Positions 36,001 through 39,000 of a stretch of 64,000 nt of DNA are shown here, one piece after another. This DNA is from a virus. Location: positions 30,701-94,700 of IMG/VR virus record IMGVR_UViG_3300035663_000003; one strand, given 5' to 3'. The first letter of the stretch is position 1; each line of letters opens with the position of its first letter. A program made the position numbers.

Positions 36001-39000
36001 AGTTTCGCAACGAGTGCAGATGTAACCGAAACATGGAGCGTTGCAAATGTTACAAGCTCCAACGTCATCAAGATACTCTTCAGTACCGCACCGTTGCTCA
36101 ACTGGTCGTTTACACCCACAAATACAATTAGCCATAACCAATACTCCTTTAGAGTAGCTATCAATTAAAACAGCCACCTACAAGAGCGTAGATGACTGCA
36201 AGATCCGTGATAGTTCAGATCAAAGACTTAGTGAGAGCGTCGAACTCCCAAGCTGCCTATCAGCTAAGTCAAAATTATTTAAAGTACAAACCACAGAATG
36301 ACTGCGGTATAAGACAAGATCAAGTAACCGCAAAACGCATACCACGCAATGACCAAGGAAGGATCATTAACTTTCCCTGTTGAGATGGCATACAGAAGAC
36401 GAAAGAAACTAGTCAAGATTGCCAACATTAAAAACGCTTCTTCATAAAAGGAGCGAACTTTTTCTACCTGTGGTTCTGGGTCATCCTCCTCTAATCCTTG
36501 AAACTTCCGAAGTGCTTTTTCGTTTTCGTAGTCGTAATACTCAAGACAGTATCCACGTTCATTAGGCCCTTTACAAGCAGCTTGATTACATGATTGACAA
36601 CCAACAGAAGCAGCAAGAACCTCTGCTTCTTCATAGACGTAGATGAATTCTTCGTCTTCTATTGTAACTCCCTTACAGTTGCAAGGATTACTTCCCTCAT
36701 GTCCGCAATCGCTACAAAAAATGAATGTTTTGTTATCTGGAACACAACAAGGCATATCAGTATCCTCCAAAACAAAAACATCAACTTCTGGCACTGCGAT
36801 ACACTCGCAATACCCAATAGCAAAAGCCTCACCAGCATCAACACCGGTAAGAACTTCAGAACCACATACAACACAAAAGTTAACATTAGCCATCGTAAAA
36901 CTCCTTAATCTAGAAACAAAAACAGCCACACTCAACATGAGCATGACTGTATATGCCGGACTTGGAACCGTTATGAAGTCTAGCCTTCATAGTGCATTAC
37001 ACCCGAAGGTGTCCTCTGCTAGTTTTTTGGAGTCATAAAAACTTTGTCTAATACCGCAAACATTTTTTCCAACAACCAGACATTAACAGGAGTAAACAGC
37101 ACCACCAAAACTGCAAAACAAACTGTGAAGTATGCAATTTGACCAACGATATTATTATCCATAACTAAACTCCTTGATCTAGAAACGAAAACAGCTACCT
37201 CAAAGTGAGATAGCCATATATGCTCGGACTTGGAACCGTTACCTAACCTAGATCAGATTAAGTAGTGCATTACACCCTTTTCGGAGTGTCCTCTGCTAAT
37301 TAGGGTTTTTGTTATAAACCCGAACATTCTCTCCCTCAACAATATTAAGAGTCGCATAAACAAAAGAACGATGAGTCTCTTGAAAGAAAGATACATCAAC
37401 ATTACTTCGTTCTTTAACTACTGCTGGATGACAACAGATAATTTTTGTGATTTTTACTTTTAACTCTTTAAGCACTAAAGTTAAAGGACAACTACTGTTG
37501 TTAGGATAAAACCATACATAACCATCCGAACTTCCGTGAATTTTTAATACTGTTTCACCCTCTGTAGTTTTAAATACTGTCCAACCGGGAGCATTAAATT
37601 GATCATTCCAATCAGCAGTAGCTACAACACTAGCAACAGTGCAAACCTCAGGCATATTTTTTGAACATTCATTTATGTATCGAACAGCCAAAATGCCGAG
37701 TGCTATGTTGAAAGATAAAACCAAAATCAAAATAACATTACTCTTCATCTCAGACTCCTTTAAATATTCAACACACCCCACTGAGCACACAACACGCATA
37801 CTCATAACGCACATAGGGGTAGGGGGTGTTAAATCATCCACACAAACAGGAGTACAAATAGGGCGGGGCTCCCCTTTAATACGGGGGGCTAATAAAGTTT
37901 TCTGCCAGAATGGCAGTTGTTAAAATGTTTTTAAGTGCCGCGAGTTACATCGGGAGTGTTATTTAACCCCTGTATTTCTTGTTGCCTTGCTAAAGATTGT
38001 TTTCTTAAAAATTCTTGTTGGTCTGTTTCTGTTTTTTTGTTTAGTTCAGTTTGCTTTTCTAAATGAACATCACTAATTTTTACAGATGCGTTTTCTTGAA
38101 GTGTATCTAAATGATCTTTTGGAATTAACGTATGAATATGAGACATGACCATAGAAAGCTCTTCTTCTGATTCTGAAGCATGTATCATTCCCAATAAAGA
38201 ATATCCTTGAAACTTTTCTTGTACATTTGGTGGAATTACTTTTGATATACCAAAAAGATAATCTTCAGAGCTATCTGCTTCCATAAGCTCTTGTTTTTTA
38301 GCTTCATCAAATTGTCCAGTTTTATTAACAGCTTTATTTGCTTCACCACTTAGCAGATTTCTTCTTTTTTGAGGAATGAAAAATCCAGTATTTTTATCTA
38401 CATGACCAAGAGAACTTTCAAGACTTTGTTGAATTCTTTCATAGCGTAAACCGTACAAAACTCTTTCATACCCAAGTATTGCTTTGCTTACTTCTGGATC
38501 TTTATCTACATCTTTTAAACGAAATGCTATTTCATCATTAATCAGTCTTTGTCCGTGTTTACTTGTTAAATAATTAATAAACAGTCCATGAATACCGTTA
38601 GGGTTATCAACTACCATTTTTTGAAACACTGCGTTAGTTTTCATATTACTAACGTATCTTTCAAACAGTTTTTGAATTGCAGGGCTTAAAGGTTTACCCC
38701 TAGAATCAACATAAGGTGGAGCATACTCACCGATAATTTTTGACCGTTTAGGAATAGCCCTCATCAAATTTCTAATTTGTAACCTGTCTAAATAATCTGC
38801 TTTACTAAAATCTGGATCTTTTCTATGACCTCTTGTTACGTCGTTTCTACGTCCTTTATTTTCATCGGGATCTTTATCTTCTAATCGACGACGATCTAAT
38901 AACTGATCAAGTGTGACTCCTGACTCTTTAGCAGCAGCATGAAGCTTGTCGGCCATTTCGTAAATTTGTTTGTATAAATAAGCATGTTTAGACCGCCAAG

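Follow-up and report, generated by a model that had tools for sequence, protein, structure and literature searches.

The type-P5 class of twister ribozymes (RF02684) was described by Roth et al. in 2014, as summarised in a review (PMC5408937), and twisters are cut at the U-A step that adjoins the stem P1 (PMC5408937). Several systems are known in which self-cleaving ribozymes or stem-loops are interspersed with phage genes. Clustered hammerhead ribozymes of prophages flank single genes of varying identity and cleave in native transcripts of roughly 2 kb, which was interpreted as a processing of phage transcripts into single-gene messenger RNAs (mRNAs), and the idea of a circular product was also raised (PMC3088659). 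For bacterial twisters near phage genes a role in transcript processing has likewise been suggested (PMC6765202), and T4-type phages possess PeSL units, which combine a sigma-70 early promoter with a stem-loop terminator and for which DNA mini-circles were shown (Arbiol et al. 2010, PMC2839356; PMC4122927). Here we describe two elements, Tw1 and Tw2, which judged by their sequence are genuine type-P5 twister ribozymes and which occupy successive gaps between genes, on the minus strand of a 64,000-nucleotide (nt) stretch of phage DNA, positions 30,701 to 94,700 of the IMG/VR virus record IMGVR_UViG_3300035663_000003; this whole stretch is called the window, and all positions refer to it. Between them lies a gene for a hydrophobic peptide of 47 amino acids (aa). 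That phage genes can have ribozymes between them, and that a single gene can be flanked by a pair, is already known, and this general picture is unchanged. We think it probable that Tw1 and Tw2 are functional twisters that punctuate the mRNA of a phage operon, and that the unit of twister and leader is at the same time a site of homologous recombination.

An earlier note on this DNA, made from the sequence, had read a complete twister core in both copies. All of its elements are found, on the minus strand, as follows, with stem lengths in base pairs (bp):

37225-37296, minus strand: twister 1 (Tw1), type P5, 72 nt; 28.1 bits with RF02684, model positions 1-58
37296-37294, minus strand: Tw1 GCA, 5' strand of P2
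37293-37289, minus strand: Tw1 GAGGA, loop L1
37288-37273, minus strand: Tw1 P1 hairpin, 5 bp and loop
37272/37271, minus strand: Tw1 scissile step U37272/A37271, predicted
37269-37267, minus strand: Tw1 UGC, 3' strand of P2
37266-37265, minus strand: Tw1 AC, T2
37264-37240, minus strand: Tw1 P3, 9 bp
37238-37225, minus strand: Tw1 P4/L4, CGG-UUCCAAGU-CCG
36957-37019, minus strand: twister 2 (Tw2), type P5, 63 nt; 27.2 bits with RF02684; core the same as in Tw1
37019-37017, minus strand: Tw2 GCA, 5' strand of P2
37016-37012, minus strand: Tw2 GAGGA, loop L1
37011-37000, minus strand: Tw2 P1, 4 bp, UUCG loop
36999/36998, minus strand: Tw2 scissile step U36999/A36998, predicted
36996-36994, minus strand: Tw2 UGC, 3' strand of P2
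36993-36992, minus strand: Tw2 AC, T2
36991-36972, minus strand: Tw2 P3, 7 bp
36970-36957, minus strand: Tw2 P4/L4, CGG-UUCCAAGU-CCG

The order of elements in both copies, namely GCA, GAGGA, P1, UAA, UGC, AC, P3, A and CGG-UUCCAAGU-CCG, is the type-P5 permutation, with the stems P1, P2 (GCA/UGC) and P4 (CGG/CCG) in the type-P5 order. Both copies have the two pseudoknots, T1 being formed by GA with UC and T2 by AC with GU. The cleavage-site sequence is GU/AAUGC at 37272/37271 and at 36999/36998, where the U-A step adjoins P1 and the conserved adenine is present. Inspection revealed no flanks that pair as a P5 stem, which is optional. The 14-nt P4/L4 word and the 11-nt word of the 5' core, GCAGAGGACAC, occur twice each in the window, only at Tw1 and Tw2.

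With the type-P5 family the two copies share both strands of P2, the L1 sequence GAGGN, P1, UAA, T2, the optional P3 and a P4/L4 with CCAAG, and in addition the double-pseudoknot partners, the scissile U-A step and the stop-to-start placement on the coding strand; the core is identical to that of family members in the viral contig L013. They differ from the family in that they are AT-richer, have a short P1, both possess a P3, and have a P2 of 3 bp and A:U pairs in T1 and T2. The 3-bp P2, the A:U pair in T1 and the A:U pair in T2 mark a phage-borne subclass to which Tw1 and Tw2 belong. Unlike other members of RF02684, the twisters of this phage clade are fused to a conserved terminator-like leader hairpin and a ribosome-binding site.

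When Rfam is searched in E-value mode, Twister-P5 (RF02684) is the best match at both sites and covers the full length of the model (1-58), with E-values for Tw1 and Tw2 of 0.0015 and 0.0024 if 1.1 kb is searched, and of 0.085 and 0.14 for the whole window. Rfam has no further match with E<0.5 in the 64 kb, both strands included; other ribozyme classes gave no match below this value in the window. The Rfam consensus is matched in GCAGAGG, UAAUGC and GGU.CCAAG.CCG, and departures occur only at the covarying pseudoknot positions and in the missing fourth P2 pair. A covariance-model search, which the earlier note had proposed as a check, therefore gave a divided result: the curated threshold of Rfam is not reached, but there are sub-threshold RF02684 matches at exactly these two sites, and three copies in L013 with a core identical to the window's exceed the cut-off with 39.3-41.5 bits. 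A model built from phage copies gives 47.8 bits for Tw1 and 46.0 bits for Tw2 and detects only these two sites in the window and in the metagenomic bin, scores that are not independent because Tw1 and Tw2 are among the seed members of that model. The locus thus contributes two twisters with good support that escape the curated threshold of Rfam.

The assignment is supported by covariation among phage-borne relatives. The exact core recurs in 10 stretches of IMG/VR viral contigs according to a pattern search, and a looser pattern, in which the four pseudoknot positions are left free, occurs in 106 IMG/VR stretches that yield 125 unique copies. The pseudoknot pairs which the earlier note had regarded as compensatory relative to the rice twister are common natural covariants in this set: in T1, where the base behind GAGG pairs with that behind CGGU, 82 of the 125 copies have G:C and 41 have A:U, and one copy is unpaired; in T2, where the base behind UGC pairs with the last base of L4, A:U occurs 57 times, G:C about 50 times and G:U 8 times. 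P1 exists in 124 distinct sequences among the 125 copies, and its pairs 2-5 are canonical in at least 96% of cases, each with four to six pair types. In an alignment of 70 sequences, pseudoknots included, 97% of the paired cells are indeed paired, compared to 78% after shuffling (none of 500 shuffles reaches the observed value) and to 19-42% when the partners are slid against each other. Double, compensatory changes are seen in this alignment in all five P1 pairs and in both variable pseudoknot pairs; alignment pair 8-85 is GC in 46 and AU in 24 sequences and never unpaired, and pair 53-91 is AU in 36, GC in 25, GU in 3 and CG in 2. P3 also differs by compensatory changes between the copies of the window and those of related contigs, and the further claim that P1 and P3 vary between the copies and still remain paired holds well.

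At or above the Rfam cut-off, which GC-rich relatives reach, 48 Twister-P5 matches were obtained in 11 of the 13 loci searched, the three L013 copies among them, with up to 8 per roughly 10-15 kb. The related contigs L005 and L011 carry a twister with an identical core in the same slot, although their flanking proteins are only 31% and 34% identical to those of the window, and this retention despite diverged neighbors argues that the twister slot is under selection. Variants of the window's twister layout are found in L009 and in L004/L114.

Some other twister-like elements came to light in these searches. Three GC-rich phage contigs of IMG/VR (L089, L075 and L059) contain 7 to 8 Twister-P5 copies per roughly 10-15 kb, which is far denser than in the window. 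A divergent twister-like element occurs at L009:5294-5378 on the plus strand and, identically, in the bin contig C292 (L112:1501-1585), and it obtains 17.7 bits with the phage-copy model. It comprises GAGGA, P1, UAA, P3 and GGGG-UUCCAAGC-CCCC, with a P2 of GUG/CAC instead of GCA/UGC, and is located directly behind a homologue of the 949-aa protein that is encoded further down the window's operon; the window's own 949-aa gene has no counterpart behind it. The bin contig C240 holds a third twister candidate of 20 bits.

The placement of the ribozymes relative to genes follows a pattern. For an intergenic position we required an upstream open reading frame (ORF) of at least 50 codons that ends between -30 and +6 nt, and, no more than 120 nt downstream, the start of an ORF of at least 40 codons; by this definition 86 of the 102 phage twisters with enough flanking sequence are found between the end of one ORF and the start of the next, compared to 81 of 510 random positions. 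The upstream stop codon usually ends at -1 to +2 nt from the ribozyme, as it does for both copies of the window, and from the ribozyme to the next start codon the median distance is 22 nt. Seven other contigs likewise have a single small gene enclosed by two twisters at a spacing of 264-450 nt, and there the enclosed proteins (64-118 aa) are soluble and unrelated. As the ribozymes occupy consecutive spacers and the cargo elsewhere is unrelated, the flanking of a small gene is not tied to the 47-aa peptide. The stop-to-start location of most phage twisters and the recurrence of tandem pairs with unrelated cargo favor the view that these ribozymes act as punctuation in the mRNA. In the window, the parts between and behind the two ribozymes are these:

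37181-37217, minus strand: leader hairpin 1 (hairpin 37217-37191), 12 bp; behind it an interrupted U-tract, CUAGAUCA and the ribosome-binding site AAGGAG (37175-37170)
37019-37162, minus strand: 47-aa ORF with one hydrophobic helix; stop codon UAG at 37021-37019, its G being the first base of Tw2 P2
36912-36950, minus strand: leader hairpin 2 (hairpin 36950-36922), 13 bp, with a U-tract, followed by the ribosome-binding site AAGGAG (36906-36901)
36999-37271, minus strand: predicted 273-nt product of double cleavage, deduced from the family cleavage site and the coordinates

The 47-aa ORF, which the earlier note had described as a membrane peptide gene, stands up to closer analysis. The maximum Kyte-Doolittle mean over 19 residues is 2.43, and four homologues with 83-88% identity show conservative substitutions; for the alignment of these homologues no relative locus was found among viral contigs or metagenome contigs. 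Because of the good ribosome-binding site, the hydrophobic segment and the four conserved homologues, it is very probably a real gene. Small hydrophobic peptides recur at such sites: L113 has a 51%-identical copy of the 47-aa peptide before its first twister and a different hydrophobic peptide of 46 aa between its third and fourth, and in L004/L114 yet another one is encoded ahead of the twister.

The punctuation of the operon mRNA can be envisaged as follows. Each ribozyme would fold while the operon is transcribed, once P4/L4 has emerged, and Tw1 would then cut between U37272 and A37271 and Tw2 between U36999 and A36998. The mRNA upstream of a cut would retain its stop codon and end about 25 nt further on, within the P1 hairpin and with a 2',3'-cyclic phosphate, while the downstream mRNA would begin with a 5'-OH followed by P3, P4, the leader hairpin and the ribosome-binding site. 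Merely by lying between two such punctuation marks, the 47-aa gene would be set free as a linear, monocistronic mRNA of 273 nt. This RNA is predicted to start with 5'-OH AAUGCAC, continue with P3, P4, leader hairpin, ribosome-binding site and 47-aa ORF, and finish with UAG, GAGGA, P1 and a GU that bears the 2',3'-cyclic phosphate. Both the cuts and the product length that the earlier note had given follow from the alignment to the family consensus. The likely purpose of such an arrangement would be to uncouple the stability and the translation of adjacent cistrons in a way that does not need host nucleases. At the DNA level, the repeated twister and leader would serve as a site of homologous recombination by which small genes are gained, lost and shuffled. 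With the clustered hammerheads of prophages the locus shares several closely spaced self-cleaving ribozymes that flank individual genes in phage DNA; it differs in the ribozyme class, and for the hammerheads a cleavage of native polycistronic fragments was shown in vitro and in vivo, whereas that of Tw1 and Tw2 is predicted. The locus represents a clean natural case of such ribozyme punctuation in phages, with a 273-nt single-gene message, two ribozymes, and relatives with one unit (L116) or four units (L113).

Several points weigh against this interpretation. At the Rfam gathering threshold no match is found anywhere in the window, and with 28.1 and 27.2 bits Tw1 and Tw2 remain about 10 bits below the RF02684 cut-off of 37.6 bits, which is an operational and not a structural criterion. 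P2 consists of three Watson-Crick pairs where the consensus has four, and an early structural paper, as cited in PMC5408937, considered that an altered P2 length could disturb the active site. P1 of Tw1 contains a C/A mismatch, and in the minimum-free-energy fold of Tw1 a pairing between the P3 apex and the leader takes the place of P3/P4. P2, P4 and most loop columns carry no covariation evidence because the search pattern fixed their bases. If the terminator-like hairpins are efficient, little polycistronic RNA would be left to process. Finally, what is observed is the sequence with its structure and covariation, the intergenic placement, and the indel and mosaicism described below; that the RNAs are cut, which ends they bear and how expression responds is inferred. 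On the other side, the low scores can be attributed to a short P1 with AU and GU pairs, the P3 insert, the P2 of 3 instead of 4 bp, and pseudoknot variants that the model cannot credit, and knowing these reasons is useful when searches for ribozymes in viral DNA of low GC content are tuned. Most phage copies (94 of 125) have a 3-bp P2, and a high-throughput assay of natural twisters found cleavage to be independent of P2 length or imperfections (bioRxiv 10.1101/2024.07.11.603121). For Tw2, the minimum-free-energy fold contains P2, P1, P3 and P4 together with the leader hairpin (z = -3.4).

The P3 apex of Tw1, UGAUCUAG (37248-37255), is perfectly complementary to CUAGAUCA (37175-37182), which adjoins the ribosome-binding site of the 47-aa gene. 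This complementarity is strong for one P3 type only, where it comprises 8 nt that about 1% of shuffled leaders equal, and it is present in every copy of that P3 type; in Tw2-type copies it is weak and not significant. Such a pairing could possibly be a link between the ribozyme fold and translation, or else an effect of the palindrome.

The leader hairpins deserve attention on their own account. Their 3' arm ends with G(U/G)(A/G)GCUGU, after which an interrupted U-tract and the ribosome-binding site follow, and their stems covary across copies and relatives. The same hairpin is used once more at 36199-36170, there without a twister, and hence stands before three consecutive genes. Hairpin and U-tract could act as an attenuator of transcription or lend stability to the new 5' end. 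A consensus scan of the minus strand from 37300 to 36890 detected no promoter-like site, nor was an antisense promoter facing the 47-aa gene detected by such a scan.

These hairpins are the basis of an alternative in which no cistrons are separated: transcription would mostly stop at hairpin and U-tract, and self-cleavage in the 3' untranslated region (3' UTR) would strip the protective terminator hairpin from the upstream mRNA and so lower its stability. Each twister indeed starts within the upstream stop codon and is followed by a terminator-like hairpin with U-tract within 7-20 nt, and such sites are enriched, with nine in 5.2 kb compared to 2.3 +/- 1.6 in shuffled sequences. Reporter studies of twisters in bacterial 3' UTRs are summarised in PMC6765202, and the twisters of that kind (ref. 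148 in PMC6765202) resemble those of the window in that a stop codon immediately precedes them and a terminator-like hairpin comes after. The difference is that here a gene follows at once in the operon, so that the cut makes the 5' end of the next message. As the scan showed no promoter-like site between hairpin and following gene, expression of the downstream genes depends on read-through. Moreover, most other phage copies have no hairpin at all and the next start codon follows at the short median distance given above, and the hairpin at 36199-36170 occurs without a twister. We therefore regard a pure 3'-UTR device as unlikely and prefer the punctuation of a read-through transcript.

A second alternative is that the units matter chiefly as DNA, as portable boundaries for a modular shuffling of genes comparable to PeSL, with RNA cleavage being secondary. 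It starts from the following unit:

37020-37296, minus strand: 277-nt repeat unit (twister, leader, 47-aa gene), which the close relative L116 lacks; crossover within the invariant core

The metagenome contig L116 has flanks that are 95-100% identical to the window at the amino-acid level, and it contains the end of the 181-aa gene, a single twister and the homologue of the 204-aa gene. Its upstream flank matches that of Tw1, and its P1, P3 and leader match those of Tw2; it therefore has exactly one 277-nt unit fewer, with the crossover in the 5' core. In L113 four twister units stand in tandem, separated by other small genes, so that the cargo differs and the 47-aa homologue occupies another slot. 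The copies combine two types of P1, three of P3 and three of leader hairpin in various ways, and L114, for example, joins a Tw1-type ribozyme to a Tw2-type hairpin. Indel and mosaic modules together suggest that the twister units also behave as recombination cassettes and that the ribozyme cores double as recombination sites; in literature searches that were not closely aimed at this point no report of ribozyme cores as recombination sites turned up. PeSL provides a precedent (PMC2839356) in that short conserved regulatory units with a stem-loop recur among small genes whose function is unknown, and insertions and deletions that distinguish close relatives have these units as their borders, but the unit of the window consists of ribozyme, hairpin and ribosome-binding site, and no promoter was detected at 37300-36890 on the minus strand. 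The compensatory changes in P1, P3, T1 and T2 reflect a selection on RNA structure, and DNA homology alone would not maintain them. That the units serve mainly as DNA boundaries is thus quite unlikely, and this explanation is complementary to mRNA punctuation rather than exclusive of it. Going one step further, we tentatively consider that twister, leader hairpin and ribosome-binding site could form a portable gene socket in this phage clade, which would insulate each inserted small gene at the RNA level as a message of its own and offer an invariant crossover core at the DNA level for inserting and deleting small genes and for moving them between slots and phages. Several of these small genes encode membrane peptides, and in the same tentative sense the unit could be a ribozyme-based counterpart of the PeSL cassettes of T4.

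RtcB joins 5'-OH to 2',3'-cyclic-phosphate ends. The two cuts would leave exactly these end types, and it has been proposed in the earlier note that the 273-nt piece could be circularised by this enzyme; an end-to-end ligation, by RtcB or by the reverse ribozyme reaction, would give a circular mRNA for the 47-aa peptide, and because the cores of Tw1 and Tw2 are identical the joined ends would rebuild a complete chimeric twister. Ribozyme-flanked units do form circles in viroid-like RNAs and retrozymes (PMC7761336; PMC6765202). However, no ligase of the RtcB (PF01139) or Rnl2 (PF09414) type was found in the 92%-complete assembly, phage contig included, in a search that matched the control genomes. 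This negative result is weak evidence against a circle, since the bin may not be the true host, and a search for T4 Rnl1 (PF09511) was uninformative because neither the assembly nor any of 14 control genomes gave a match. Further objections are that twister pairs in other phages flank genes of 64 to >200 aa without a common theme, that arrays of 3 to 8 twisters are common and fit punctuation rather than a dedicated circle, that a rebuilt ribozyme would cut the circle again, and that the 47-aa ORF has its own stop codon, so that no endless reading frame would be gained. Perreault et al. also sought circular or spliced products of the clustered prophage hammerheads and found none (PMC3088659). 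Circularisation of the excised piece is accordingly unsupported, and we think that it is very unlikely to be realized.

That Tw1 and Tw2 are chance matches or decayed, inactive relics, as their sub-threshold Rfam scores, the 3-bp P2 and the mismatch in Tw1 P1 might suggest, is hardly credible in view of two full-length matches on the coding strand, 277 nt from each other and each placed exactly in an intergenic spacer, of the core shared with copies above the Rfam cut-off, of the slot kept in relatives with flanking proteins of 31-34% identity, and of the covariation in 125 copies and 70 aligned sequences.

The DNA comes from an uncultured tailed phage of roughly 95 kb from lake or fresh water. 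The plus strand of the window encodes a portal protein, a head protease and an HK97-type capsid protein (Pfam/PHROGs), and the major capsid protein has less than 30% identity to any deposited phage. Positions 36100-38000 are contained in 24 sequencing runs, all of which are DNA metagenomes of lakes or fresh water, with no RNA run among them, and which may include the source. The twisters belong to an operon that runs leftward, divergently from the portal gene, and has the order 908 aa, 181 aa, Tw1, 47 aa, Tw2, 204 aa and onward:

40663-40691, minus strand: sigma-70-like promoter candidate (TTGCCA, 17 nt, TAGAAT; 10/12 consensus positions), from the consensus scan only
37296-37841, minus strand: 181-aa ORF, function unknown; stop codon UAG at 37298-37296, its G being the first base of Tw1 P2
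36279-36893, minus strand: 204-aa Cys-rich ORF, function unknown; probable start ATG 36893, behind a ribosome-binding site

The promoter candidate lies directly upstream of the start of the 908-aa ORF at 40657 and would, if used, drive the operon that carries both twisters. The 908-, 181-, 47-, 204- and 102-aa ORFs have no match in Pfam or PHROGs, and for the 949-aa ORF there is only one to OstA_2, below the cut-off. Sequence searches of the PDB with the 949- and 908-aa proteins gave no useful match, and among deposited phage genomes there was neither a tblastn match to the 949-aa protein nor a blastn match to the cassette. Homologues of the 181-aa protein precede a twister in L005/L011 (31% identity), L009 (45%) and L116 (95%), and those of the 204-aa protein come after a twister in L004/L114 (67%), L116 (75%) and L005/L011 (34%).

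Two genes after the twisters, at 36279-36893 and 35869-36134 on the minus strand, encode Cys-rich proteins that begin with MANVNFCVVCG and MANCICGC, and these are possibly zinc-binding. Their homologues in L113, L116 and L009 vary in length from 88 to 277 aa and have no family match.

The next spacer, between the 204-aa gene and the ORF start at 36134, has no twister. It holds a three-way junction of 46 nt (36225-36270, minus strand) that consists of a stem of 7 bp (GACUUAG/CUAAGUC) and two arms, one of 4 bp (GCUG-AUAGG-CAGC) and one of 5 bp that bears a T-loop-like UUCGACG, and a hairpin follows at about 36200-36222 on the same strand. L116 and L113 retain the junction, and its long stem shows one compensatory exchange, U-A to C-G; it has no match in Rfam or by ARAGORN, and a pattern search of IMG/VR gave none. 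It could be a tRNA-like processing site, for instance a substrate of RNase P, in a slot that twisters occupy elsewhere. Just before the 949-aa ORF there are tandem hairpins at 35820-35844 and 35786-35808 (minus strand) with a GUGUU loop and U-rich tails, and in L114 and L005 a similar hairpin is found (loops AUGUU and GUGUU), whose stems are different in sequence yet paired.

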